Source: a virus
Taxonomy: Duplodnaviria; Heunggongvirae; Uroviricota; Caudoviricetes
Strand: one strand, 5' to 3'
Virus record (IMG/VR): IMGVR_UViG_3300031417_000415
Length of the DNA stretch: 64,000 nt
Shown in pieces: positions 10,329 to 57,561 of the stretch; position 1 is the stretch's first letter, and the number at the start of each line of letters is the position of its first letter. Under the pieces are notes generated by a model that was not told where the DNA came from, did not search any database, and saw only the letters and a program-made list of their open reading frames with translations. The position numbers and the translations under genes were made by a program.

Positions 10329-10452
10329 CGGCCTCGACGCCGTCCAGAACAGTGTCCGGCACCGGCCGGGCAGGGTGCTTCTCCGCGAATGCGTTGAAGG
10401 CGTCTCCTCAAGGTGGGGGGAAAATGAAGTGAACAGTCGAAAGGAATACATC

Positions 10453-10803
10453 ATGAGCAAGCCCATCCCAGCATCGGTCGAAGCCAACCGCGCCAAGTTC
10501 CGCGAGCAGGGCGTCGCCAACAAGGCCGCACGCGCGACCGCACACGCCGATCTGATCGCCTCGCAGAAGCTCGTCGGCCAGGGCAACCGCGAGAGCCGCG
10601 CCTCGAACCTGTCGGCCAACGTCGAGAAGTTCCGCGCGATCGGCGTCGAGAACGCACCGCTGAAGGCGCAGGCCAAGGCCGACCGCATCGCCGGCGCGAC
10701 CGCGCGCAACGAGCAGCTCAAGGCCGAGGCCGCAGAGCGCAAGTCGGCGCGCATGTCGGCACACGCCGAGCGCAACGCGTCGATGAAGAAGGTCGCCGCG
10801 TAA
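10453..10803 (+). CDS. small Ala/Lys/Arg-rich helical protein, paralog A (internal two-fold repeat)
   Basis: about 75% identical to the 29762..30109 product; same upstream GGAAAATGAAG element and same downstream hairpins. Confidence 0.5.
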   Translation: MSKPIPASVEANRAKFREQGVANKAARATAHADLIASQKLVGQGNRESRASNLSANVEKFRAIGVENAPLKAQAKADRIAGATARNEQLKAEAAERKSARMSAHAERNASMKKVAA

Positions 10804-12999: not shown

Positions 13000-13180
13000 C
13001 ATCCTCCCCCAGCTGAAGCCTGGGGGATTCCTATAGCTAGCCGCTAAGGGCGTCCAACGGTCATGCGGCGAGCTTGCACTCGCCGCGTATTCCCATTGAA
13101 CCTTCCTGCTTCCTTCGGAGCCATTCGGCCCCGTTCTTCGCCGGTTGCACATCGTCCTTACGAACGATGCGTCCTACATC
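12990..13180 (-). ncRNA. candidate TnpB omega-RNA (overlaps tnpB 3' end and right-end hairpin)
   Basis: inference from IS200/IS605 architecture; right-end hairpin CCCCCAGCTGAAGCCTGGGGG lies just past the tnpB stop. Confidence 0.25.
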
Positions 13181-14390
13181 GACTCCACAGGCCTTCCGCC
13201 GTTCGGCGAGGATCGCAAGTCCTGCGACCCTTATGTTGATGGCGGCGTTGACGTCCCGGTCGTGGGCCACGCCGCACGACGGACACGTCCAGGCACGAAC
13301 GTCGAGAGCCATCTCCGCCATCCGATGCCCGCAGCCGGAGCATTTCTTGCTCGAAGGCTCCCACTGCGAGATCCTGACGATCTCGCGCCCATACCACGCC
13401 GCCTTGTACTCGAGCTGCCGCACGAACTCGCCCCAGGCCGCATCGGAGATGGACAAAGCCAGCTTCCGGTTCCTGACCATGGCACTCGCCCGTAGCGTCT
13501 CAATGCAGATCACCTGGTTCTCGGCGATCAGCTTCGACGACAGCTTGTGGAGGAAATCCAGCCGAACCCTGCGCACGCGCGCGTGGACACGCGCGACCTT
13601 CCTCCTGCTCTTCTCCCTGTTCCTGCCGCCCTTGGCCTTGCGGGCGTGATCACGTTGCGCTCTCGCCAGACGATCGAGCGACTTCCTCAGCGCTCTAGGT
13701 GCATCGATGCGACTGCCCCGATCGTCCATGACGTAGTTGGTGAGGCCAAGATCGACGCCGATGGCGTCACGGCCGCCTGCGGCGGCCGAGGTCTCGACCT
13801 CGACCTTCAGCGACACCCACCAGGTGCCGTCCGGCTCGAGACTGATGGTCATGGTGCTGGGGTCGCCCCAGAACACCTGCGTCCAGACGAGGTTCAGCGG
13901 CTGCTTCGACTTGGCCATCGTCAGGACCTTGCCGTCCCAGCCGAAGGCGGAGGCCGTGAACTCCGCCGACTGACGGAGACGACGCTTCATGAAGCTCGGA
14001 TAGCCGACCTTGCGGCCGGCCGGGGCCTTGCACCATCTGAAGAACTTCCTGAACGCCCCTTCGAGATGCCGCAGCTTCTGCTGCAGCGGCACGCAGCTGA
14101 CCTCGTTCAACCAGACGAACGCGGGGTCCTTCTTCCACTCGGTGAGCAGCGCGGACATGTCCGCATAGGACATGCCCTTCTTCTCTTCGCGCCAGCGGCG
14201 CGAGCGCTCCGCGATCATCCGATTCACGACCCAGCGTTCGCACCCGAAGGTGCGAACGAGCAGAGCCGCCTGCTCGGCAGTCGGGTAGTAGCGATAGCGA
14301 AGGCCACAGATCTGCTTCACGAAGATCGTGTTATCCTGTTTTCCTGAAAAGGAAAACGCATTCCTCCCCCGGCTGAAGCCTGGGGTATCC
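13000..14390 (-). mobile_element. IS200/IS605-family (IS1341-like) insertion sequence carrying only tnpB
   Basis: near-identical 27 bp subterminal hairpin-forming direct repeats TCCTCCCCCRGCTGAAGCCTGGGGKAT at 13002-13028 and 14362-14388 flank a TnpB gene; no TnpA. Confidence 0.6.
13061..14320 (-). CDS. tnpB: TnpB (OrfB_IS605) RNA-guided RuvC nuclease with zinc finger
   Basis: N-terminus MKQICGLRYRYYPTAEQAALLVRTFGCERWVVN, RuvC motifs, CSGCGHR...CPSCG zinc finger and NAAINI RuvC-III motif. Confidence 0.8.
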   Translation of the reverse strand: MKQICGLRYRYYPTAEQAALLVRTFGCERWVVNRMIAERSRRWREEKKGMSYADMSALLTEWKKDPAFVWLNEVSCVPLQQKLRHLEGAFRKFFRWCKAPAGRKVGYPSFMKRRLRQSAEFTASAFGWDGKVLTMAKSKQPLNLVWTQVFWGDPSTMTISLEPDGTWWVSLKVEVETSAAAGGRDAIGVDLGLTNYVMDDRGSRIDAPRALRKSLDRLARAQRDHARKAKGGRNREKSRRKVARVHARVRRVRLDFLHKLSSKLIAENQVICIETLRASAMVRNRKLALSISDAAWGEFVRQLEYKAAWYGREIVRISQWEPSSKKCSGCGHRMAEMALDVRAWTCPSCGVAHDRDVNAAINIRVAGLAILAERRKACGVDVGRIVRKDDVQPAKNGAEWLRRKQEGSMGIRGECKLAA

Positions 14391-29619: not shown

Positions 29620-29761
29620 CCCGGTATCCACGAGCAACGCAGCCGACGCCCATACCGGCCGGCGGGTGATGGCTCGCGTCCGCATCTCGCGGACCGGCGA
29701 CCAGGGTCCAGGGAAGAATGAGTGTTCCCAAGGTGGGAACGGAAAATGAAGGAATTCAGAA

Positions 29762-30109
29762 ATGAGCAAGCCGATCCCCGCGTCCGTCGAAGCCAACCGT
29801 GCGAAGTTCCGCGAGCAGGGCGTCGCCAGCAAGGCGGCACGCGCGCAGAAGCACGCAGAGCTGCTGGCCAGCCAGAAGGCGCTGGGCGCCGCGAACCGCG
29901 AGTCGCGCGCGACCGCGCACGCGCAGCTGATCGAATCGCAGAAGGCCGTCGGCGTCGCCAACGCGCCCGTCAAGGCGCAGGCCAAGGCCGACCGCATCGC
30001 CGGCGCGACCGCGCGCAACGAGCAGCTGTCGGCAGAGGCAGCCGAGCGCAAGTCGGCGCGCATGTCGGCACACGCCGAGCGCAACGAGTCGATGAAGAAG
30101 GTCGGCTGA
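29762..30109 (+). CDS. small Ala/Lys/Arg-rich helical protein, paralog B
   Basis: paralog of the 10453..10803 product; 3' 130 nt nearly identical. Confidence 0.5.
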   Translation: MSKPIPASVEANRAKFREQGVASKAARAQKHAELLASQKALGAANRESRATAHAQLIESQKAVGVANAPVKAQAKADRIAGATARNEQLSAEAAERKSARMSAHAERNESMKKVG

Positions 30110-33638: not shown

Positions 33639-33744
33639 TCATAGTCGCCCGAGCACGGACGGACGGGCCGGCATCCATCGGATGCCGGCCTTTTCCATGC
33701 CCGATACGCGGAACGGACCAGAACAGGCATCAAGGAGGAAAAAG

Positions 33745-34503
33745 ATGACGGACGTGCATTCCGACCCATGGCACCAGCTGGCCGAAGACATCGAGAACGG
33801 CTGCGCGGAGTTCAACCGCGACCGCATCGACGCGCGGCAGAGGCCGTTCCCCTTCCCCGTAGACGTGGTGCGTCGGCTGCTGCTCGTCCTGAAGGACGCG
33901 AGGCGCCCGCTTCCGGCATTCGACATCGTGACCGACGGTCCGGAATGGCGCCTCATGCTGCGCTGGACGCGGATCGGCGGCGAGGCGTACGTCACGGCTT
34001 CCAGGGACGACGTGATCGACGTTCGCGTCGCGCTGGACGGGCGCGTACTCGTGGACACGCAGGAGGCGCGCTATGCTTCGTTCGATCCGCAGCCGCTGCT
34101 GGACGCGCTGGACCACTTCACCGCGCTCAAGCAGGTCCTCGTGGTACGCCGTGACCTGAAGATGCGCCAGGGCAAGGCCTGCTCGCAGGCATCGCATGCT
34201 TCCGGCGAATTCATGCGCGAGCAGATCGTCGCGGCCATCCACCGCCACGACGATCTCAACTTCAGCGACGACGAGATCGAGTGGATGACGCTGGGCATGG
34301 CCAAGATCACCGTCCGGGCCGACACCGTAGAGCAGTTCGAGCAGGTGCAGGCCGACGCGCTGGCCCGGGGACTGAAGGTCCGTACCATCACGGACAGCGG
34401 GCGCACGGAGTTCGCCGGGGTGCCGACCATCACCGCGCTGGCGATCGGACCGACGCGCTCAGCCTATGTCGATCCTATCACTGGTGCAATGACCCTGCTG
34501 TAG
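33745..34503 (+). CDS. two-domain protein with C-terminal peptidyl-tRNA hydrolase PTH2 domain
   Basis: conserved AAGGAGGAAAAAG-ATG motif; LVVRRDLKMRQGKACSQASHAS and RTITDSGRTEFAGVPTITALAIGP match PTH2. Confidence 0.5.
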   Translation: MTDVHSDPWHQLAEDIENGCAEFNRDRIDARQRPFPFPVDVVRRLLLVLKDARRPLPAFDIVTDGPEWRLMLRWTRIGGEAYVTASRDDVIDVRVALDGRVLVDTQEARYASFDPQPLLDALDHFTALKQVLVVRRDLKMRQGKACSQASHASGEFMREQIVAAIHRHDDLNFSDDEIEWMTLGMAKITVRADTVEQFEQVQADALARGLKVRTITDSGRTEFAGVPTITALAIGPTRSAYVDPITGAMTLL

Positions 34504-34589: not shown

Positions 34590-35642
34590 ATGCGCCTTCT
34601 CGTCATGTCCATCCTGCTGTCCGCGACGGCGATCCCTGTATCAGCGCAGACGGCGGACACCATCGTCATGCGCAAGGTCATGGGGGCCATCGCCTACCCC
34701 AAAGACCTGAAGCCCAAGTACGGCTGGGCCTATGGGGAGTGGACATCACCGACGAACGCCTGCGGTACGACCGTGCAGACGCGCACGGTGACCTGCGTCA
34801 AGGGAGGCAGGCCCGAATCCCCCGATCTGTGCCGGCAGGCGCCACAGGCAGCCACGCGTACGGTCGAGGACCTGTCCAGCTGCGTGTACGACTGGAAGAC
34901 GACCTACAGCGGCTGGCAGGGAAGCTGCACTGCGGCGGCCACCCGGTCCGCAACCAGCGTCTGCCGTCGCTCCGACGGCACCGTCGTGGCCGACGCCTTA
35001 TGCGATTACACCAGCCGCCCCAAGACGGTGGAAACCGCCGCGAACTATGCTGGATGCGTCTACGACTGGAAGGTAGGGACATGGAGTCAGTGGAGCTCGA
35101 CGTGCTCCAACAGCAGCCTGCATACGCGGTCGGTGACCTGCGAGGCAATGACGGACGAAGGCACCGGCATCAGGGGGACGGTCGACAAGTGCAGGACGCC
35201 GCAGCCGGTCGACCGCGAGACGCAGAAGATCGTCACCGACTGCACAGGAATGCTGGTCAACGGCAACTTCGAGAGCGACATGACCGGCTGGACGCCCACA
35301 AGTCGTGCATCGATCAGTTCAACCGTCGCCCACGGCGGCAAGAAGTCGATGCAGATATACAACACGAGCTCGATCTCGCAGACCATCCAGACCGTCATAG
35401 GCGCAAGCTACAGCGTCACGTTCTACTCGTACCAGTACGGATCGAACGGAATACGTCTCATGATCGGCGGCAACCTGATCGCAGGAGGCCGGGGCTCCAA
35501 CGGCAACTACGAGTGGTTCCAGCGTTCCGGATCCTTCGTGGCGACCTCGGACACGACCAAGCTGACTTTCCTTGCAGAAGGCGGGTTCACCTTCACGTCC
35601 GAGTACGTAGACGACATCGTGGTTGCCCAGTCGCCCATGTAG
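34590..35642 (+). CDS. secreted protein with thrombospondin-type-1-like Cys/Trp repeats and C-terminal carbohydrate-binding-module-like beta domain
   Basis: signal peptide; repeats YGEWTSPTNACGTTVQTRTVTC / YDWKVGTWSQWSSTCSNSSLHTRSVTC; C-terminus NGNFES..GWT. Confidence 0.5.
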   Translation: MRLLVMSILLSATAIPVSAQTADTIVMRKVMGAIAYPKDLKPKYGWAYGEWTSPTNACGTTVQTRTVTCVKGGRPESPDLCRQAPQAATRTVEDLSSCVYDWKTTYSGWQGSCTAAATRSATSVCRRSDGTVVADALCDYTSRPKTVETAANYAGCVYDWKVGTWSQWSSTCSNSSLHTRSVTCEAMTDEGTGIRGTVDKCRTPQPVDRETQKIVTDCTGMLVNGNFESDMTGWTPTSRASISSTVAHGGKKSMQIYNTSSISQTIQTVIGASYSVTFYSYQYGSNGIRLMIGGNLIAGGRGSNGNYEWFQRSGSFVATSDTTKLTFLAEGGFTFTSEYVDDIVVAQSPM

Positions 35643-36651: not shown

Positions 36652-39600
36652 TTATCCAGTGCAGCTGCAGATGACGTTCTTGGATCCCGTAGTGGACGGA
36701 TACCCGCCTCCGTAAGATCGCTGAAGACCGTAGATCGTCCCGTAGACGCCGTTCTTCGACACGTCGCACGTTCCCGGATTGGTGCTGTTCGGCGTGTTCG
36801 AGAGATACTCGGGCCCACCGGACGCAGCGCCGTTGCTGAGCGCGTAGTACACCCACGGAATGGTTGTCATCGAGGTCGGCATGCGGCTGCTGCCCCAGCT
36901 CGTCGCGGCGCCGGACGAGCCATATCCCGGACCGCCAGCGGTCCAGCTGCACGACAGCGTGCAGGCCTGCGAGATCGTCCAGGGCTGACCACGGTTGACG
37001 CACTCCTCACCCGCCACGCTGGCGCCGTCGGAACGACGGCACAGGTTCATGCCCTGCGTCTTCGTACCGTTGGTGCACGCACCGAACGCGCCGTAGAAGG
37101 CCTGATAGGTATAGTACGTGCAGGCCTGCGAACGCGTCCATGGCTGACCGCGCGCGACGCACTCGTCGCCGGCGACGCTCGCACCGTCGGAACGCTGGCA
37201 CAGGTTCATGCCCTGCGTCTGGGTGCCATTGCTCTGGCACTCGCCGAAACCACCGTAGTACGCCGTGTAGCCGCAACCGGCGACGTTCGAGTAGCCCTGC
37301 GCACCGGCAGGCTGGCCGCCGCCGCACAGCGATCCGTCGACACGGGCCCCGTCAGAACGCTGGCACCACACGTCGCGGTACTCGGTGCCGGTCGTGCAGA
37401 CCGCCTGCTGGCCCGACCAGCCGCCTGCCTGCCACGAGTAGCCGCAACCCGAGAAGTTGGCGGTCTGGACCGACTGGGAAGTCGGAATACCCCGGTTCGA
37501 GCACTCGGCGATCGCAACATCGGCACCATCCGACCGACGACAGCCAGTCGCGTACTGAGTCGCCGTGGTATTTCCCGAACAGCTACTGGCGTAGTTGTAG
37601 CCGCTCCAGCCAGATACGGAATAGCCGCACGCCGCGTAGTTGGTATAGTTCTCGGTCGTCGGCGGCTTGCCGCCTCCGCAATAGGCCTCTGCCACGCGGG
37701 CACCGTCGGACCGGACGCAGGCGACGTCGCGGCTGTACGACGCGGTGCCGCAGACAGCCTGCTGTGCAGGGTAGCCGTAGGCGACCCAGCTGTAGCCGCA
37801 GGCCGAATAGTCGGCGAAGGTCTGAGAAGCAGCTGGCCTCGCGCCGGCGTTGCAGTAGCCTTCGGCGACCGTGGCACCGTCGGAGCGCTGGCACCATACG
37901 GACCGGGCCTGGCTGACCGATCCGCAGCTCTGCGCGGTGGTGCCCCAGCCGTTGTACGCCCAGCCGTACGAGCAGGCCGAATAGTCGGTGACGCCTTCGC
38001 CATCGGGCGGCCGCGTGCCGGGATTGCAGTTGCCCGCATCCACCGTGGCGCCGTCCGAGCGGGTGCACCACACCGCACGATAGCGGGCCGAAGCGCCGCA
38101 GGCCGCGGCAGGAACGCCCCAGCCGCCGGTGCTCCAGGTATAGCCGCACCCGTCGTAGATGCCCGTGGTCTCGGAGCGCGACGGTACGGCGACGCCGCGA
38201 TCGGTGCAGTACTGGTCGCCGGCGAACACATTGTCGCCCGCGCGGTAGCAGGTCGCGGTCCGCGTCCGGGTGGCCGACGCCGAGCAGTGACTGTTGTAGT
38301 CGGTCCAGCCGCTGACCGAGAAATACCCCGGGCAGGCGTTGGTGTAGTTCGCCCCGGTCTGGGTCTCGGTCAGCAATATACCGCGCGCGGTGCACTCGCC
38401 CGCAGCGACGATCGTTCCGTCGGAGCGCTGGCACGAATAGGTACGGGTGCGATTCGCCGTGCCCGAGCAGGCGTTGTCCCACCCGCTCCACGCCGACGGG
38501 CTGACGCGCGAGTAGCCGCACTGGTCATACACGGCAGCAGTCTCGCTGTTGTTCAGCGTCGGACCAAATCCCTCACGGGTCGCATCAGGTCGGGCAGCGC
38601 ACTGCGCATTGTCAATCTTGCGATAACAGTTGCCGCCGCCGGCGTCAGACCAGTAGTTGGCAGAGCCAACGACACAGCGTTCCTCATGGCGAAAACAGCC
38701 TATGTCACGGGTACGCGTGGCATTGGTGGAGCAGTGGCTATTCCAGTCGGTGAACCCGGAAGCCGCATACCAGTACGGAGCACAGGAGCCGTAGTTGGCG
38801 ATCGTCTGAGACGTGGTCGGCTTGGCAGCGGTGCATTCCGCGTCGCCGACCGTCTGACCATCTGAACGCTGGCATGTCACCGAACGGGTCTGCACGGCCG
38901 CAGCCGAGCAGCCGCTGTCCGGGGAACCCCAGGCGCCGACGTTCCACGTGCGGGCGCACCCGGCGGTCTGATAGGACGCCTGCGAGGTATCGGGCTTGGC
39001 GGTGGCGCAGAAGCTGTCTGCCACCGTACGACCGTCGGAGCTCTGGCACGTTACGGGTCGGGTCTGGGTCGCGCTACCACACGTTGCCGACCATGCGCCG
39101 AACGACCCCACGGACCAGCCGTAGGTGCAGGTCGAATAATCGGTCGCCGCCTGCTGCGCGGCGGGACGGCTGCCGGCGGCACACGATCCGTCGGCGACCG
39201 TCTGGCCGTCAGATCGCAGACAGGTGACCGAACGGTTCTGCACGGTCGGCCCACATGCCGGAACGGGCGAGCCGAAGGCACCGGCATTCCAGGAATAGCC
39301 GCATCCGCTCGTCTCGTAGGTCGTTTTCGAGAGATCGGGCTTCGCACCCGAACAGGAGGCGTCGGCGACAGTACGGCCATCGGAGGAAAGACAGGTGACG
39401 CTGCGCGTGGAGGTCGCGCTGCCGCAGGTCGTCGACGGCGCGCTCCAGGCGGCCGGGTTCCAGGAGTAGGTGCAGGTCTGGTAGTCGGTGACGGCCTCGC
39501 TGACGGCGGGCTTCGTTCCCGCATCGCACGATCCGTCAGCGACGACGTCGCCGTTGGAGCGCACGCACTGCACGCTGCGCGACCTGGACGATGGGCCGCA

Positions 39601-40503
39601 CGCAGGCGCGACGGCGCCCCAGGCCTGCTCCTTCCAGGAATAGCTGCACTGGCCGTACTGGTCGCCGGTCTCGCTGACGGCCGGCTTGGCGCCAGCTGCG
39701 CCGCACATGGCATCAGCGACCTCGTCACCGTTAGAACGGAGGCAGACGACCTCGCGGGTACGGGTCGCTCCCGTCTGGCACGACGACGACCACGGGGTCC
39801 ACGCCTTCTCCTTCCAGGAGTAGCCGCACTGGCCGTAGCGATCCTCGGTCTGCGATGCCGCAGGCTTCTTGCCCGAAGCCGAGCACTCGGCATCCGTGAC
39901 CTTCTCGCCGTTCGACCGCTCGCACCACACGTTGCGGGTCGAGGTCGCGGCAGTCTGGCACTCGCCCGAGAACGCCGACCATACGTCGTTCTTCCACTCG
40001 TACGAGCAGGTGCGCAGGTCGCGGACCTCGCGGCTCGTATCTGGGGCAGGAGCCGGGCACTGGTCGTTGGGGACCGTCTTGCCGTCGCCGCGCAGGCAGG
40101 TCAGCTCGCGGGTCTCGACCACCTGGCCGCAGCCGGAGGCATCGGTCCACTCGCCGGGCTGCCAGGTGTAGTCGCAGCCCTGGATGTCGTAGCACGACTG
40201 GTTGTCGGCAGGACGGTTCGGGCCGCAGTTGACCTCCGGAGAACCATGCTTGCCGTTCATCATGCACTGGACGGCGCGGGTCTGCTGACCGGCGCCGCAG
40301 CTGTTCGAGCACTGGCTCCATGCATCCGGGATCCACGCGTAGGTGCGGGTCTTCGGATCGAGCGAGCGGCGCATCACGACGACGCCCGAGTCCGCCTGCG
40401 CATACGCCGCGGTGGACTGCAGCATGCCAATTGCGATGAGTGACGCTGCTGCATACGCGGCAAGACGCATAGTTCGGACTCCCGATGGATTTGGGAGAAG
40501 CAT
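36652..40503 (-). CDS. giant secreted protein (1283 aa) of about 20 tandem thrombospondin-type-1-like repeats
   Basis: signal peptide; repeated unit W..WS.TCGSATQTR.VTC..SDG.TVAD..C...KP; the long sense-strand ORF is R/A/G-rich junk. Confidence 0.55.
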   Translation of the reverse strand: MLLPNPSGVRTMRLAAYAAASLIAIGMLQSTAAYAQADSGVVVMRRSLDPKTRTYAWIPDAWSQCSNSCGAGQQTRAVQCMMNGKHGSPEVNCGPNRPADNQSCYDIQGCDYTWQPGEWTDASGCGQVVETRELTCLRGDGKTVPNDQCPAPAPDTSREVRDLRTCSYEWKNDVWSAFSGECQTAATSTRNVWCERSNGEKVTDAECSASGKKPAASQTEDRYGQCGYSWKEKAWTPWSSSCQTGATRTREVVCLRSNGDEVADAMCGAAGAKPAVSETGDQYGQCSYSWKEQAWGAVAPACGPSSRSRSVQCVRSNGDVVADGSCDAGTKPAVSEAVTDYQTCTYSWNPAAWSAPSTTCGSATSTRSVTCLSSDGRTVADASCSGAKPDLSKTTYETSGCGYSWNAGAFGSPVPACGPTVQNRSVTCLRSDGQTVADGSCAAGSRPAAQQAATDYSTCTYGWSVGSFGAWSATCGSATQTRPVTCQSSDGRTVADSFCATAKPDTSQASYQTAGCARTWNVGAWGSPDSGCSAAAVQTRSVTCQRSDGQTVGDAECTAAKPTTSQTIANYGSCAPYWYAASGFTDWNSHCSTNATRTRDIGCFRHEERCVVGSANYWSDAGGGNCYRKIDNAQCAARPDATREGFGPTLNNSETAAVYDQCGYSRVSPSAWSGWDNACSGTANRTRTYSCQRSDGTIVAAGECTARGILLTETQTGANYTNACPGYFSVSGWTDYNSHCSASATRTRTATCYRAGDNVFAGDQYCTDRGVAVPSRSETTGIYDGCGYTWSTGGWGVPAAACGASARYRAVWCTRSDGATVDAGNCNPGTRPPDGEGVTDYSACSYGWAYNGWGTTAQSCGSVSQARSVWCQRSDGATVAEGYCNAGARPAASQTFADYSACGYSWVAYGYPAQQAVCGTASYSRDVACVRSDGARVAEAYCGGGKPPTTENYTNYAACGYSVSGWSGYNYASSCSGNTTATQYATGCRRSDGADVAIAECSNRGIPTSQSVQTANFSGCGYSWQAGGWSGQQAVCTTGTEYRDVWCQRSDGARVDGSLCGGGQPAGAQGYSNVAGCGYTAYYGGFGECQSNGTQTQGMNLCQRSDGASVAGDECVARGQPWTRSQACTYYTYQAFYGAFGACTNGTKTQGMNLCRRSDGASVAGEECVNRGQPWTISQACTLSCSWTAGGPGYGSSGAATSWGSSRMPTSMTTIPWVYYALSNGAASGGPEYLSNTPNSTNPGTCDVSKNGVYGTIYGLQRSYGGGYPSTTGSKNVICSCTG

Positions 40504-47392: not shown

Positions 47393-47437
47393 GTCCGATT
47401 TCACGACGACGAGACCAACCACCGGGGAGGAGGAACG

Positions 47438-48103
47438 ATGGACTACAAATATCCGCGGACATATCATCTGCCGACCTCGCCCGGTCTGCAGAACGACGAC
47501 AGGCGGCTGCCGAGCCTCCGGCCCTTCGTGGGCAGGCGGGTGATCGGTACCGAGAAGATCGACGGCGAGGGCACGACGATGACGCCCGAGAAGACCTACC
47601 CCAGGTCGCCGGACGGCCGCTATCATCCGTCGCGCGACCTGATGAAGGCGTTCCACGCCACCAAGAAGGCCGACATCCCGCACGACTGGCGGATCTCGGG
47701 CGAGTACGGCTATGCGCGCCACTCGATCGCCTACACGCGCGATCTGGGCAACGCGCTGCCGGCATGGTTCCTGGGCTTCGGCGTATGGGACGAGCGCAAC
47801 GTGCTGCTCGGCTGGGACCAGACGCTCGAGGTGTTCGAGATGCTGGACATCGCGCCCGTCCCGGTGCTGTACGACGGCATCTACTACGACGGCCTGGCCG
47901 ACGATCTTGCGAAGTCGATCGATCCGCTCCGCCAGGAGGGCTTCGTGCTCAGCCTCGCGGATCCGATGCCGTACCCGGACGGCGCGGGCGACAGCGGCCG
48001 CTTCTTCACCGGCAAGGCCAAGTGGGTGCGGCACGGACACGTCCAGACCAATCGCCACTGGATGAGCGGCCCCGTCGTGCCGAACGAGCTCGTGCAGGGC
48101 TGA
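47438..48103 (+). CDS. RNA ligase (covalent nucleotidyltransferase superfamily, small Rnl-type)
   Basis: motif I EKIDGEG, III ISGEYGY, IV EGFVLS, V FFTGKAKWVRH. Confidence 0.55.
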   Translation: MDYKYPRTYHLPTSPGLQNDDRRLPSLRPFVGRRVIGTEKIDGEGTTMTPEKTYPRSPDGRYHPSRDLMKAFHATKKADIPHDWRISGEYGYARHSIAYTRDLGNALPAWFLGFGVWDERNVLLGWDQTLEVFEMLDIAPVPVLYDGIYYDGLADDLAKSIDPLRQEGFVLSLADPMPYPDGAGDSGRFFTGKAKWVRHGHVQTNRHWMSGPVVPNELVQG

Positions 48104-48171
48104 GGCACCGACGCAATCGCACGTTAAGATCTCGTATGCGATACGAGACCAACAGAAAAAGGGGACCTGCC

Positions 48172-48660
48172 ATGATGATCTCATTCCTGACTGCCGCAAT
48201 GCTCGCAGCGACCATGCCTCAGGTGCAGGACGCGCCGCCGATCGCGCCTGGCGTCGTCATGACCGAAGGCGGTCCGGAAGAGGACGTCATGGTGACGGAG
48301 CCTGCGCTTCGCAGCCGCATCGCGGTGAACGAGGTCCGCAACCCCTGGCGCGGTGCAGGGACGATGGCCGTACGCCGGGGACGTCGGGCGGCGCCACCGC
48401 TGCGGATCGACTACGACCGCGACGGCGTCGTCGACACGGTCCGCCTGGTGCAGAGCCGCATCCATTCGGCAGTTCTCCTGACCTCGGGAAAGACCGGTCG
48501 TACGCGGCCGATCTGGCTGATCGACAGCGACGGACTGGGCGCCGACGTGCATCTCGGCAAGGGCGAGAAGAACACGATCGAGATCGTCTTTCCCGAGTCG
48601 ACAGTGATCTTCCTGTTCGACGACCACGGCAAGCCGATGGCAACCTACCAAAACGGCTAG
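48172..48660 (+). CDS. secreted or membrane-anchored hypothetical protein
   Basis: N-terminal hydrophobic MMISFLTAAMLAATMP. Confidence 0.4.
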   Translation: MMISFLTAAMLAATMPQVQDAPPIAPGVVMTEGGPEEDVMVTEPALRSRIAVNEVRNPWRGAGTMAVRRGRRAAPPLRIDYDRDGVVDTVRLVQSRIHSAVLLTSGKTGRTRPIWLIDSDGLGADVHLGKGEKNTIEIVFPESTVIFLFDDHGKPMATYQNG

Positions 48661-48711
48661 AGACGTCCCGACGCACCTCGTGCGGATGAGACGAACCTGA
48701 AGGAAAAGCAA

Positions 48712-49662
48712 ATGCGCGCCGTGATATTCGACGTCGACGGCACACTGGCCGACCCGTCGCACCGACTTCACCACCTCGACGGCATCGACAAGGACTGGAA
48801 GTCGTTCCACCGCGAGGCCGAGAACGATCCGGTGATCGAAGGCATCGCCGAGATGGCGCGCATCCTGTACCGGACCTGCACCGAGGGCCTGGGCATCGAC
48901 GCCGTGCTGATCGTGACCGCGCGTCACGACGATCCCGCCATCAAGGCGACGCTGATCGCATGGCTGGAGATGGCGGAGATCCCGTATCACCGCATCTACA
49001 TGCGGGCGGACGAGGACACGCGACCCGACCACGTGATCAAGGCGGAAATCCTCGAGCGCATCCTCGAGGATGGCTACGAGCCGATCGGCGTCTTCGACGA
49101 CCGGCCCGAAGTGGTGCGCATGTGGCGCGACCACGGCATTCCTACGTTCCAGGTGGCGCCCGACGAGCAGCCAGCCACCCAGTATGCCGGCCAGACGCTC
49201 CTGCACATGCTGATCGGCCCATGCGGCGCCGGCAAGTCCACCTACGTGGCGGCTAACTACAGACCCGAGGACGTCATCTCGGTCGACACGCTCCGCGTCC
49301 AGCTCTTCGGCAACATGGGCCACAGCCCGGAGGCGCTGATCCGGGTCTGGAAGTACGCGCACGGCCTTGTTCGGGCGCGCCTCGAGGCGGGCGTGTTCAC
49401 GGTGCTGGACGCGACCAACCTCGACCCCGAGGACCGCGAGAAGATCCTGCGCCTCGTGCCGCGCAACGTCTTCATAAACTACATCGTGATCGACCGCGCC
49501 TACGACGACAAGGTGCGCGACCGCGACTGGCGCGACGAGGACATGGTGCAGAAGCAGCATCGCCTCTTCCGCCGCCACGAGGACGTCATCCTCGCAGGCG
49601 ACGACCATCCCTGGGTCGTGGTCAAGGACAAGCGGGATCCGCGCTCCAAGACGCGCAAGTAG
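48712..49662 (+). CDS. polynucleotide kinase/3'-phosphatase (N-terminal HAD phosphatase plus C-terminal P-loop kinase)
   Basis: conserved GAAGGAAAAGCAA-ATG motif; AVIFDVDGTLAD (DxDGT) and GPCGAGKST Walker A. Confidence 0.6.
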   Translation: MRAVIFDVDGTLADPSHRLHHLDGIDKDWKSFHREAENDPVIEGIAEMARILYRTCTEGLGIDAVLIVTARHDDPAIKATLIAWLEMAEIPYHRIYMRADEDTRPDHVIKAEILERILEDGYEPIGVFDDRPEVVRMWRDHGIPTFQVAPDEQPATQYAGQTLLHMLIGPCGAGKSTYVAANYRPEDVISVDTLRVQLFGNMGHSPEALIRVWKYAHGLVRARLEAGVFTVLDATNLDPEDREKILRLVPRNVFINYIVIDRAYDDKVRDRDWRDEDMVQKQHRLFRRHEDVILAGDDHPWVVVKDKRDPRSKTRK

Positions 49663-53359: not shown

Positions 53360-53362
53360 TGC

Positions 53363-53397
53363 GATGCGCCCCTCCTCGGAGGGGCGCATTTTTAATG
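53363..53397 (+). terminator. rho-independent terminator GCGCCCCTCC-TCGG-AGGGGCGC + ATTTTTAAT
   Basis: GC hairpin plus T-run. Confidence 0.55.
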
Positions 53398-53448
53398 CAG
53401 GACGCCTCGAAAAGCGGCAGTCGGATACATCCACTGGAAGGAAAAAAG

Positions 53449-54514: not shown

Positions 54515-55249
54515 ATGACAGACACGATCGACGACGTCGAGCGTCCCGACCTGAGCGACCGCGCGAAGGCGCTCGGCGCATACCTCGGCAAGGCTCCCGG
54601 CGAGTTCGAGCCGTTCGGCGCGGGCTACGACCTGCTCAAGGAATGGCTCCGCGCGGAGATCCTGTGCAACGATCTCGACCGGATCGGGCATACGGGCATC
54701 GACCTGGTGGCCTCGCTGCTCGGCGAGGACTTCCCTCTGGCGGAGACGGTGCGCGAGCTGTGGTGCGCGGCATCGGGGCTGTCGCTGCTGTTCGGCGACG
54801 ACAGCGAGCCGTCCATCCAGATCGAACTGGGCGACTGGGCGATCACGTGGAGCGTCACCGACGAGGGCGACTTCGTCAAGCGCACGGTGCTGATCGACAG
54901 CACGCGCCAGCTGCCCAAGGGCATGCGCCACTGGTTCGAGCGCGCCGGCATCTACCAGGGCAAGCGCTACGGCATGCACCGACGCTGGCGTACCTACAAC
55001 CACATCCACGGCACGTCGCGCAAGGCCCGCTTCGCCGCTGGCACGATGGACGGCAGCCGCGAGTTCCGCGTCCTGCCGCACCTCGACCGCATGGACATCT
55101 GCGACGGAAACTTCGACCGCTGGGCGAATTCCAGGGCGGCGTCCGTACCGATGCCCCGCACCCAGGCGGAATTCGAGGCGGCGCTCGTCGAGCTCGTCAA
55201 GCGCTCCGCGACGAGGATATGCCGCGTAGCGCCGCAGGAGGCAGCATGA
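54515..55249 (+). CDS. hypothetical protein
   Basis: conserved GGAAGGGAAAAGAC-ATG motif. Confidence 0.4.
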   Translation: MTDTIDDVERPDLSDRAKALGAYLGKAPGEFEPFGAGYDLLKEWLRAEILCNDLDRIGHTGIDLVASLLGEDFPLAETVRELWCAASGLSLLFGDDSEPSIQIELGDWAITWSVTDEGDFVKRTVLIDSTRQLPKGMRHWFERAGIYQGKRYGMHRRWRTYNHIHGTSRKARFAAGTMDGSREFRVLPHLDRMDICDGNFDRWANSRAASVPMPRTQAEFEAALVELVKRSATRICRVAPQEAA

Positions 55250-55701
55250 CCGATCATATCCACACCGTGCGCGACCGCCGTATCCTGCTGCGGATCGAGC
55301 AGCTGCATCGCTGCGACAATCCGACGGTCGACAGCCCCGAGATGCAGATCGCGCTCCTGCGCGCAGGCATCTCCGGCATGGCGGCCATCATACAGGCCGA
55401 ACCGCAGGACGCGGACCTGGACGAGCGTCTGCTGCTCGAGATCGAGCGGATCCGTCGCTGCGACAACCCTTCCGTCGACAGTCCCGAAGCGGAGATCTCC
55501 GTGCTGCTCGTCGGCCTGTCGGGGCTGGCGGTACGCATCCGCGCACAGGCGGAACGCGAGGCGATCGCGCGGATCATCGACGACGAGATCTGGGACGGCG
55601 ACGGCGACTATCCGCTCGACCGGACACGGATCGCGGACCGCCGGGCAAGCGCCTACGCGCGCGCTGACCGTATCGTCGCCCTGCGCGAAAGGATCTCGTG
55701 A
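55246..55701 (+). CDS. hypothetical protein with internal about 45 aa duplication (RCDNPxVDSPE...)
   Basis: ATGA overlap. Confidence 0.4.
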   Translation: MTDHIHTVRDRRILLRIEQLHRCDNPTVDSPEMQIALLRAGISGMAAIIQAEPQDADLDERLLLEIERIRRCDNPSVDSPEAEISVLLVGLSGLAVRIRAQAEREAIARIIDDEIWDGDGDYPLDRTRIADRRASAYARADRIVALRERIS

Positions 55702-56261
55702 TGGTCGACATCATCCCCGTCCCACCCGAGACGCAGGAAGCGCGCATCGTCCGCCTCCGCGGCGAGATCGCGGCCTGCGGCCGCAACCATGCGCTGCTGC
55801 GCAGGGGATCGCCCAAGGTCGTAGCCAACAACGAGACGCTGCGCTCGGGCATACGTCGGCTGATCGACGGACTGCCTGCCGATCCGGATCTCGCTGCGGT
55901 CGCGGAGAAGCTGGAGGACGCATTGCTCCTTCCGCTCCTGTACCGGCGCGACATGCCGGCCGAGACGCCGCCTGAAGACGACGCGGAGCCCGTCGACCCG
56001 ACGGACCTGGCCGACTTCCTCGACAGGCGGCTGCGGACGGCGAGCCGGACCAACTACCTCATCCAGGAGGCGGGCGCTCCCGTCGTCTGGAACAGCGACG
56101 CGATCCGGGCCGTGCTGACCCAGCTGCGGGACGAGCTATCGCCGCCCGGCATCGAGGACGAGCCCGAGAACCCCCTCACGCTCGACCAGGCCATGATCAT
56201 GGCGATCGTCGACGAGATCGACGCGATCATGAAGGCCGGAGCGGACCGGCCCGACAAGTAG
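55698..56261 (+). CDS. hypothetical protein
   Basis: overlapping start. Confidence 0.4.
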
Positions 56262-56284
56262 AACGGTCCGGCGGCACGTCTGCG

Positions 56285-56425
56285 GGGACGTGTCTTGGGA
56301 CGTCCAATGTCGACCCGCCGACAGCGTGCTGCAGATCTGCCACCGGCTGTCTTGGGACAGTCAATGTCGACTGCCGACAGCGCACGACAGATGCGCGACC
56401 GGCTGTCTTGGGACAGCCATACTTC
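56285..56425 (+). repeat. about 2.5 tandem copies of a 55 bp repeat (CCGGCTGTCTTGGGACAGTCAATGTCGACTGCCGACAGCG...) upstream of clpP
   Basis: direct repeats at about 56289, 56344 and 56399, each with a CTGTC-TTGG-GACAG hairpin. Confidence 0.4.
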
Positions 56426-56464
56426 CCGCGCGAGCGGGCATTACCCACACCTCAGGAGAACACC

Positions 56465-57112
56465 TTGAACCTCGACAACTTCGCATCGCCCTACAGCTTG
56501 GCTCCCCAGGGCATGGGCCTCGTCCCCATGGTCCTCGAGCAGTCCAACCGCGGCGAGCGCTCCTTCGACATCTTCTCGCGTCTCCTGCGCGAGCGCATCA
56601 TCTTCGTGACCGGCGGCGTCGAGGACAACATGGCCTCGCTGATCTGCGCCCAGCTTCTCTTCCTCGAGTCTGAGAACCCGAAGAAGGACATCTACATGTA
56701 CATCAACTCGCCGGGCGGCGTCGTCACGGCGGGCATGGCGATCCATGACACCATGCAGTACATCCGTCCGGACATCTGCACCGTCTGCGTGGGCCAGGCA
56801 GCGTCGATGGGCAGTCTCCTGCTTGCGGCGGGAACACCCGGCAAGCGCATCGCGATGGTCAACTCGCGGATCATGATCCATCAGCCTTCGGGCGGCGCTC
56901 AGGGCATGGCGTCGGACATCGAGATCCAGGCGCGCGAGATCCTGCGCATGCGCACGAGCCTGAACAACATGTACGTGCAGTACACGGGCCAGCCGCTCGA
57001 CGAGATCGAGCGTAAGATGGACCGCGACACGTTCCTGGAAGCCGACGAGGCCAAGGCGTTCGGTCTCGTCGACCAGGTCTTCGACAAGCGGCCGCTGCCG
57101 GACGCGGCCTGA
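56465..57112 (+). CDS. clpP: ATP-dependent Clp protease proteolytic subunit ClpP (probable TTG start)
   Basis: [23 protein letters not shown]...[12 protein letters not shown]...GQAASMGS...MIHQPSGG; highly similar to alphaproteobacterial ClpP; RBS AGGAGA before TTG. Confidence 0.8.
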
Positions 57113-57195: not shown

Positions 57196-57561
57196 GTGGC
57201 CAATAGCGCAAGCACCCGCTCGAACCGGGGTCCGAGCGTCAGCGACGTGCTGACGAGCATCATGTGCATCTTCGGCGTCACGTTCGTCAGCCTCTCCGGT
57301 ATCGCGATCTACAGGGAGGCGCATCCGTCCAAACGCGTGGCGGCACACCGCTTCGACGAACCCGAAGCCCGTCTGGACCGCACGGACGGACAGTCCGAGA
57401 CCGGCCGCCTGCTCGGAATACGGGCGACCATCGTCGGGAACATGCCCGACGAATGCCGTGGCGAGATCGCGATCTCGCTTCCGAAGGGGCCGCCGGCCGA
57501 CGAAGCGGCCATGCTCGCGACCGTGAGGCGTCTGTGCCCTCAGGCGTTCGAGGACGAATAG
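57196..57561 (+). CDS. hypothetical protein with N-terminal TM helix (GTG start)
   Basis: RBS GAAGGAAGA. Confidence 0.35.
   Translation: MANSASTRSNRGPSVSDVLTSIMCIFGVTFVSLSGIAIYREAHPSKRVAAHRFDEPEARLDRTDGQSETGRLLGIRATIVGNMPDECRGEIAISLPKGPPADEAAMLATVRRLCPQAFEDE

Follow-up and report, generated by a model that had tools for sequence, protein, structure and literature searches.

Cellular ClpP, the proteolytic subunit of the Clp protease, is a known accessory gene of jumbo phages with a patchy distribution (PMC7824862, PMC6102473, PMC11242549), and one of these phages, Atu_ph07, also encodes ClpX, ClpA, ClpB, and ClpS (PMC6102473). We analyzed a clpP gene and the intergenic leader in front of it in a 64,000-nt stretch of DNA (hereafter the window) from the IMG/VR virus record IMGVR_UViG_3300031417_000415 (Caudoviricetes). 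Short leader hairpins in phage mRNAs, in which an invariant apex is combined with tolerant stems, are familiar from the nut boxB of lambda, the put of HK022, and the translational operators of T4. With roughly even confidence, we propose that the window carries an anciently captured ClpP together with a constrained, element-specific leader whose repeated module may act mainly as RNA stem-loops.

Judging from its profile matches and invariant residues, the window gene encodes a ClpP of cellular type that is catalytically intact. The Pfam family CLP_protease (PF00574) covers the whole product (E = 1.4e-84; 282.9 bits against a cut-off of 20.2), the NCBIfam model PRK00277 scores 330.4 bits (cut-off, 249), the clpP equivalog model TIGR00493 lies barely above its cut-off (309.9 against 308.6 bits), and the protein aligns over its full length with solved tetradecameric ClpPs in the PDB (E values down to 1e-84). 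When the protein is aligned with cellular ClpPs, the catalytic triad Ser114, His139, and Asp188 does not vary; its residues presumably correspond to S97, H122, and D171 of Escherichia coli ClpP (a 17-residue offset from mature numbering), and the conserved N-terminal LVPMV... region is also present. The ClpP-related head-maturation proteases (NF045542; PHROG 94) have the same protease fold and give weak profile matches to the window ClpP. However, NF045542 reaches only 97.2 bits, under its cut-off of 120, with just residues 70-205 matched, and, unlike those proteases, the window clpP has no portal, scaffold, or capsid gene beside it; its neighbors encode Band_7, a CDF transporter, proteins of unknown function, and an ADP-ribosylglycohydrolase. 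With this model below its cut-off and structural genes not found nearby, identity as a prohead protease was rejected. The original prediction, which had been made from the sequence without database searches, was therefore right in calling the protein cellular in type, and family cut-offs, identities, and the tree described below specify it as Sphingomonadales-like. Its remark that clpP lacks a clpX partner also held: the gene is flanked by those for a 186-aa protein of unknown function and a 121-aa membrane protein, and a tblastn search of the whole window with Sphingomonas ClpX gave a best E value of 0.14. The same is true of the proposed TTG start, which AGGAG precedes by 6 nt: CAGGAGAA-N5-TTG is unchanged in nine of nine aligned relatives, the relatives do not all share the in-frame ATG at 56515, which is missing in L006, and the 215-aa product also agrees with public gene calls.

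Identity to the window ClpP is 98, 98, 90, 85, 90, 86, 86, and 91% for the closest proteins, and all of those that could be traced share one gene neighborhood, found on about ten related contigs, in the order cation-efflux gene, 244 aa, 151 aa, 186 aa, clpP, a gene of 121 or ~450 aa, 76 aa, and ADP-ribosylglycohydrolase. Identities are 78-85% for cellular ClpPs of Sphingomonadaceae, 79% for a copy on a Sphingomonas megaplasmid, 66% for Methylobacterium and Sinorhizobium (Rhizobiales), and 63% for E. coli. Because identity to the ClpPs of jumbo phages is only 49-60% (Phosso, 60.5%; Atu_ph07, 58.8%; PA5oct, 48.6%), the gene appears to have been acquired independently of them. In a neighbor-joining tree (Kimura distance, 200 bootstraps), eight element ClpPs form one clade (74% bootstrap) beside, and not inside, 26 Sphingomonadaceae sequences. 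This placement next to the host family agrees with the host-like character that had been predicted, but the clade is not nested as a recent capture would need. Moreover, element ClpPs agree at several positions with PDB ClpPs of other bacteria where the sampled Sphingomonadaceae differ, and they carry clade-specific substitutions in PD(I/V)xT, xPGKR, NSRIM, and RMR(T/R)SLN. Four-fold synonymous identity of clpP to the window is 0.82 in L002, 0.74 in L005, 0.71 in L138, 0.57 in L004, and 0.48 in L006 (0.31-0.88 for the upstream gene), and synonymous sites among the element clpPs are near saturation. Considering the clade structure, the shared synteny, and this synonymous-site divergence, the capture would predate the diversification of the family, and the idea of a recent host capture was abandoned. 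On this evidence, the gene is of cellular, Sphingomonadales-like origin and was acquired well before the element family diversified, which has kept clpP in one syntenic slot.

The leader in front of the gene is built from a repeated module. Tandem Repeats Finder placed an array at 56291-56416 (period 56, 2.2 copies, 84% matches, score 175), and a repeat search found in-register copies starting at 56291, 56348, and 56404 (spacing of 57 and 56). The tandem repeat with palindromes noticed originally is thus real, although its unit is 56-57 bp and not 55 bp. The CTGTC-N4-GACAG hairpin that had been assigned to each copy is perfect, as CTGTC-TTGG-GACAG, in copies 2 and 3 (unit 2 reads GGCTGTC-TTGG-GACAGTC at 56345-56362), whereas copy 1 reads GTGTC-TTGG-GACGT and has a shifted palindrome, GGACGT-N8-ACGTCC, with arms at 56286-56291 and 56300-56305. 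A 10-nt core, GTCTTGGGAC, occurs three times in the leader, inside the palindromes, and nowhere else in the window, where the exact 8-mer CTTGGGAC is likewise found only at the three leader sites. The 16-mer consensus TCTTGGGACANCCAAT, with up to three mismatches, has four matches in the 64 kb against 0.54 expected, a number that none of 100 shuffles reached, and three of the four make up the leader array. Self-BLAST of the window gave five internal repeats, among which the leader array is the sole intergenic one. In the fetched loci of relatives, the core is also confined to the leader position, except for a minus-strand chance match in L006/L015.

Copy number differs among these loci. Three cores are present in the window and in L001, L002, L003, L012, and L013, two in L005, one in L142, at least one in L014 (at a contig end), and none in L004, L140, L006, L138, and L139. 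The single-copy leader has the order block A, core palindrome, CCCGC/GCGGG hairpin, AGGAG, and TTG; longer leaders repeat block A plus core in tandem with core spacings of 56-58 bp, and in them the distal block A decays (the second hairpin of unit 1 has become GCAGATCTGC) while the core stays intact. Block A (ACAGCGCACGnCAGATGCGCG) varies at one loop base only in six of nine aligned lineages (the window, L002, L005, L004, L140, and L006); in L013 and L142 the 5' ACAG is changed as well, and L138 has GACGAC-GCAGATG-GTCGTC in its place. The proximal core palindrome is identical in L002, L013, L005, and L142, and the small hairpin that follows it keeps a constant stem with four different loops among relatives (GCGA, ACGA, ACGC, and CCT). 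Between the window and L006, block A is identical at 20 of 21 positions despite only 31-48% identity at synonymous sites of the flanking genes, and the core is unchanged in every copy seen despite a divergence of 18-31% between whole units; for these reasons the leader is constrained. By our own rough estimate, the joint chance of an intact core in two independent unit pairs is about 0.005.

Several features of the module suggest that this constraint acts on RNA. In all core stem-loops, neither the loop TTGG nor the closing GTC/GAC varies, pair 3-16 is always paired (C-G five times, G-U twice, and G-C once), and pair 2-17 is G-C, G-U, or A-U. Overall, 80% of the cells in core stems are paired, against 23-52% with slid partners, and the covariation score of 0.224, compared with 0.091 in shuffles, was reached by four of 500 shuffles. 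Copy 1 retains a hairpin through its register shift. Individual leader hairpins have z scores of -2 to -4.2, including the perfect proximal palindrome GGCTGTC-TTGG-GACAGCC with its 7-bp arms (-10.9 kcal/mol, z = -4.2) and block A (-7.8 kcal/mol, z = -3.4), and the RNA fold of the whole spacer has a z score of -2.9. In addition, CAGAT stands at the hairpin apex on four different stems. Since the upstream gene runs in the direction of clpP and is not separated from the array by a terminator, the array is likely to be transcribed. Taken together, the invariant center and the co-varying outer stem would slightly favor an RNA-level element over the operator that the original prediction had raised; a regulatory array in general is plausible.

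On the other side, a number of observations speak against this proposal. The covariation comes from only eight distinct copies, which are related as paralogs or orthologs, and two copies have C-A mismatches, which would be G-T on the other strand. The invariant center is also compatible with sequence-specific DNA binding, and part of the conservation of the core across copies could be due to gene conversion. A scan of the 203-bp spacer detected neither a sigma-70-type promoter nor an intrinsic terminator. The relatives L004, L140, L006, and L138, which have no core, keep clpP, so the repeated stem-loop is dispensable for the gene and the core module is an add-on. As for the protease, ClpX or ClpA could be encoded on the element beyond the 64-kb window, as in Atu_ph07 (PMC6102473).

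It is also possible, though in our view doubtful, that the array works as DNA, with GGCTGTC-TTGG-GACAGCC sites binding a dimeric factor, encoded by the element or its host, as repressor or activator of a clpP promoter within the spacer, and with duplication adding cooperative sites. Such an operator array would be in line with palindromes that have 5-7-bp arms and a 10-bp center invariant in every copy, with their constant spacing of 56-58 bp, and with the restriction of the motif to the clpP leader locus; the proximal site lies ~47-64 bp before the start codon, in the expected promoter zone, and the homologous position in L006 reads CCTTGAACAGC, which resembles the -35 element CTTGAA of the host. 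However, the scan recognized no -35/-10 pair, the center is more conserved than the arms, which is the reverse of most dimer operators, and changes in the arms preserve complementarity, including pairs of the G-U type. A spacing of 56-57 bp moreover misses helical phase by about one third of a turn, and nothing nearby was recognized as a DNA-binding protein, with neither a helix-turn-helix nor a fold match for the upstream product.

Copy number may instead drift neutrally, with the palindromes driving replication slippage or unequal exchange so that zero to three units come and go and only the proximal leader matters. Close relatives do differ in copy number, zero-copy lineages exist, and distal block A copies are decaying. 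The unit identities (79% between units 1 and 2 of the window, 69% between unit 1 of the window and that of L013, 82% between their units 2, and 93% between unit 2 of L013 and unit 1 of L005) place unit 1 of the window nearer to its own unit 2 than to unit 1 of L013, which would indicate either repeated duplication or gene conversion. We nevertheless consider neutral slippage improbable, as the core is intact in all distal copies despite the unit divergence given above, and three copies are found alike in the window lineage and in L013, whose upstream proteins are only 80% identical.

Two further possibilities received very little weight. Heat-inducible translation through an RNA thermometer, in which the Shine-Dalgarno (SD) sequence CAGGAG pairs with the C-UUG of the start or with UCUUGG of the core, would explain the TTG kept in all relatives, would suit a classical heat-shock gene (as indicated by the RpoH-type promoter of the host), and finds an SD:start hairpin of 5-6 bp predicted for all relatives although their spacers are of four kinds, but it is very improbable because these hairpins are weak (-2 to -5.4 kcal/mol) and no stabler than shuffles (z of -1.4 to +0.5), Rfam gives no ROSE or fourU match, and the core folds into a stable local hairpin of its own that is not predicted to reach the SD sequence. 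Replication iterons or a scar of clpP capture, as raised in the original prediction, or a partition site would fit direct repeats with internal palindromes beside a horizontally acquired gene but can hardly be upheld, considering that family searches found no adjacent replication or partition gene, that there is no AT-rich tract, that copy number is low and variable (at most three, with 0, 1, 2, or 3 cores in relatives whose clpP occupies the identical slot), that no such repeat precedes clpP in four host loci of Sphingomonas, and that scans of IMG/VR gave single chance matches only; a replication origin with iterons would carry several direct repeats of 17-22 bp beside a rep gene and an AT-rich or DnaA-box region.

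Other candidates were rejected outright. A CRISPR mini-array does not fit inter-core segments that are homologous to one another (units 79% identical), and the sole Rfam CRISPR match has E = 10. Unit lengths that are not multiples of three and whole-unit insertions or deletions among relatives dismiss a coding role, and the restriction of CTTGGGAC and block A to the leader within the 64 kb dismisses a general promoter or motif of the element. No convincing fit to sigma-70, RpoH, sigma-54, extracytoplasmic function, Caulobacter sigma-73, LexA, PhoB, or GntR-type sites was seen by scan or by eye. With the covariance models of Rfam 15, which include ROSE, fourU, and leader families, no match at gathering level was obtained in the window, and positions 56150-56600 gave only noise at E values up to 10. 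Scans of IMG/VR returned single chance matches for the core and none for block A. The amplified leader, without a match in Rfam or the scanned collections, is a new but small feature whose function is putative.

Host and element also differ in the promoter region of clpP. Host clpP loci have an ATG start and a CTTGAA-N16-CCGATGT promoter, which fits the rhizobial RpoH1 (sigma-32) consensus CTTGAA-N15-16-CCTATAT (PMC4843759). Element leaders have only a -35-like piece, CTTG(G/A)(G/A)AC, and no RpoH-type -10 was found at 15-17 nt in any relative. The proximal core CTTGGGAC (in L006, CTTGAAC) lies ~58-61 nt before the start, not far from the ~64 nt of the host -35 CTTGAA. According to the RNA-level proposal, expression of clpP would not depend on a host sigma-32 promoter but on an element-specific leader that consists of the block A hairpin, the GTCTTGGGAC stem-loop, the small CCCGC/GCGGG hairpin, and AGGAG with a weak TTG start. 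The tandem repeat would represent lineage-specific amplification (one, then two, then three) of a ~56-nt module of block A plus core. The repeated stem-loops with invariant apex would act in the transcript, where a trans-acting factor may bind or process them and thereby set the stability, read-through, or translation of clpP mRNA, and more copies may make the effect stronger or more cooperative.

As the window encodes no unfoldase and the N-terminal region resembles that of host ClpP, the protein would probably be driven, as the usual tetradecamer, by ClpX/ClpA of the host or by an unfoldase from another part of the element; assembly of the window ClpP into a tetradecamer is probable, and use of host ClpX or ClpA is suggested by sequence conservation alone. 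The protease would probably in this way reshape the proteome of the cell that is infected or carries the element. A bolder version, which we regard as speculative and rather unlikely, is that the GUCUUGGGAC-apex stem-loops and the CAGAU-apex hairpin form an undescribed riboregulatory module, either a platform to which an RNA-binding protein of the element attaches or a put-like, cis-acting read-through RNA, whose copy number tunes ClpP output. If this were true, module copy number would tune the timing and amount of a hijacked host-type ClpP in a giant (0.55 to ~1.06 Mb), Sphingomonas-associated element.

Table 1. Positions of the clpP gene, its leader, and adjoining features in the window
Feature	Position	Strand	Basis
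Gene for a 186-aa protein of unknown function, directly 5' of clpP	55701..56261	+	Synteny
Spacer/leader, 203 bp, containing all repeats and palindromes	56262..56464	+	Sequence
Repeat unit 1, distal, 57 bp; core GTCTTGGGAC at 56292-56301	56291..56347	+	Tandem Repeats Finder, repeat search, folding
Repeat unit 2, 56 bp; core GTCTTGGGAC at 56349-56358, block A at 56377-56397	56348..56403	+	
Block A, ACAGCGCACGACAGATGCGCG, hairpin GCGCA-N7-TGCGC	56377..56397	+	Most conserved non-coding stretch of the leader
Proximal core palindrome, start of partial unit 3; core at 56405-56414	56401..56418	+	
Small hairpin CCCGC-GCGA-GCGGG between proximal core and ribosome-binding site	56425..56438	+	
Ribosome-binding site AGGAG (56454-56458) and TTG start (56465-56467)	56454..56467	+	Conserved in nine relatives
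clpP, 215-aa cellular-type ClpP proteolytic subunit	56465..57112	+	Pfam, NCBIfam, PDB matches, alignment
G+C-rich hairpin, 9-bp stem TGCCCGGGC/GCCCGGGCA, 6-nt loop	57119..57142	+	Folding

The genes and structures on both sides of the leader are listed in Table 1. The 186-aa gene is the last of an overlapping three-gene block (54518-55249, 55246-55701, and 55701-56261) and adjoins clpP in every relative (synteny in L002, L004, L005, L006, L138, L140, and L142). Its product has no Pfam, NCBIfam, PHROG, or PADLOC match and only nine homologs among 5.8 billion proteins; its AlphaFold2 model is all-helical, with a predicted local distance difference test score (pLDDT) of 71, and Foldseek found no PDB match for it (best E, 0.53). 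A role as regulator or adaptor was not retained, there being neither a family nor a fold match, and PADLOC gave no defense or anti-defense match among ten neighboring proteins. The G+C-rich hairpin stands 7 nt past the clpP stop (-20.5 kcal/mol, z = -3.7), has no T-run, and was not called an intrinsic terminator by the consensus scan; it could mark the transcript end or stabilize the mRNA. Directly downstream of clpP, the window (57196-57561) and L001 have the 121-aa membrane-protein gene alone, L002 and L003 have this gene and a ~450-aa gene (4411-5769 in L002), and L004 (2316-3665) and L005 (10660-12015) have the ~450-aa gene alone.

The nature of the carrier is itself of interest. A comparison of 241 nt showed 100% identity between the window and contig Ga0308169_10000012 (552,210 bp) of JGI 3300031420; the identical ClpP is also encoded on a JGI contig of 1,057,871 bp, and a member of the same ClpP cluster (at least 90% identity) is on an independent ENA contig of 1,059,898 bp. 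The near agreement in length of two assemblies points to a complete ~1.06-Mb replicon, phage-like in its genes, that would be larger than any described phage. Contigs of this size count against the status of a jumbo or huge phage, as does the absence of relatives from IMG/VR; no relatives of the locus were found in INPHARED (near mode), PLSDB, or IMG/VR. The 64-kb window, with 66.5% G+C and nearly all likely genes on one strand, contains no capsid, portal, terminase, or tail gene, and no tRNAs or Rfam families were found in it. PHROG matches were obtained for 11 of its 49 proteins, and the 243-aa protein encoded two genes upstream of clpP matches only giant phages of Caulobacter and Brevundimonas; these matches, the RNA-repair genes, and the common orientation of the genes support a jumbo or huge phage indirectly. 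The few recognizable domains are R2K ATP-grasp, HAD_SAK_2, RNA ligase, PNKP, PTH2, TnpB, a YadA anchor, eight TSP1 repeats, Band_7, a CDF transporter, and ADP-ribosylglycohydrolase. We therefore treat the carrier as a huge phage-like extrachromosomal element of Sphingomonadaceae whose status as a virus is putative.

Other parts of the window also deserve mention. An RNA repair and translation toolkit is distributed over 47438-49662, 4357-4992, 33682-34503, and 51-875 and comprises RNA ligase, polynucleotide kinase-phosphatase (PNKP), a HAD 'Swiss army knife' domain, archaeal-type peptidyl-tRNA hydrolase (PTH2), and R2K ATP-grasp, a gene content typical of giant phages. The sequence GAGAC(C/G)AAC at 47411, 48145, and 48688 (plus strand) is intergenic in each case and lies ~20-25 nt before the start codons of RNA ligase (47438), an open reading frame (48172), and PNKP (48712), and the RNA-repair cluster could share it as a promoter, a transcription start, or a signal for processing. 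Behind the Band_7 gene (53360-53400) stands a canonical intrinsic terminator, GCGCCCCTCC-TCGG-AGGGGCGC followed by TTTTT, so that at least some element genes are likely transcribed by a host-type RNA polymerase. On the minus strand, 36652-40503 encodes a 1283-aa protein with eight thrombospondin type-1 (TSP1_ADAMTS) repeats (E = 2e-55), and a neighboring protein (34590-35642, plus strand) has one TSP1 repeat plus DUF642; the domain is unusual for bacteria or phages, and TSP1 genes belong to the minority that lies on the minus strand. A ~960-aa protein (5457-8345, plus strand) ends in a YadA-like anchor and resembles a trimeric autotransporter adhesin, with a 105-bp tandem repeat (7522-7766; 2.3 copies, 90%) inside its coding sequence. 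An IS605-type TnpB (13061-14320, minus strand; OrfB_IS605, Cas12f1-like TNB, and helix-turn-helix domains) runs opposite to almost all genes, and two ~355-bp copies of a small paralogous gene (10441-10795 and 29749-30104) are 82% identical and 19 kb apart.

A related ClpP locus is carried by a cultured strain, Sphingomonas sp. 3-13AW (L006/L015; JASNVZ010000001.1, 581,572 bp), which could serve as a clue to the host and as an experimental handle. Its module is compact and collinear (247 aa, 174 aa, clpP, and ADP-ribosylglycohydrolase) and adjoins ordinary bacterial genes for a C39 ABC exporter, an HlyD-like protein, Ros/MucR, and a RES toxin. A search of the literature for the sample or the strain returned nothing. 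Thanks to this cultured relative and to the natural series of loci with 0-3 copies, the regulatory question is testable, and a series of 0, 1, 2, and 3 modules would suit the study of accessory-gene regulation on giant elements more generally. The occurrence of ClpP in very large phages has already been documented, and the present case adds one more independent acquisition, from a Sphingomonadales-like donor. What the element clpP family offers in addition is evidence that a captured protease was kept for a long time under purifying selection, and that it lost the heat-shock promoter of the host and gained a conserved leader of its own. Anyhow, the carrier replicon, whose size is more surprising, may merit more attention than the clpP leader.

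Compared with cellular clpP genes, whose products belong to MEROPS family S14 (for example, E. coli ClpP, 1TYF), that of the window lies outside a neighborhood of the tig-clpP-clpX-lon type, starts with TTG instead of ATG, and has no RpoH-type promoter; the arrangement tig-GT2-clpP-clpX of the host loci, in which clpP and clpX follow each other as in the canonical operon, is not present here. The clpP genes of the jumbo phages Atu_ph07 (Agrobacterium), Phosso (Sinorhizobium), and PA5oct (Pseudomonas) resemble it in setting, being likewise cellular in type, accessory, patchily distributed, and carried on a very large element, and Atu_ph07 has a PTH2-type peptidyl-tRNA hydrolase nearby, as does the window. 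However, ClpX, ClpA, ClpB, and ClpS of that phage have no counterparts in the 64-kb window, and, in a non-exhaustive comparison by annotation spacing only, no repeated leader was seen in the clpP spacers of Atu_ph07 and Phosso (87 and 75 nt; L136 and L137). With respect to boxB, put, and the T4 operators, the leader modules differ in having no sequence similarity to them and no Rfam match, in being tandemly amplified, and in an action at the RNA level that is only putative, but a position between co-directional genes and the restriction to a single transcription unit are common to both.

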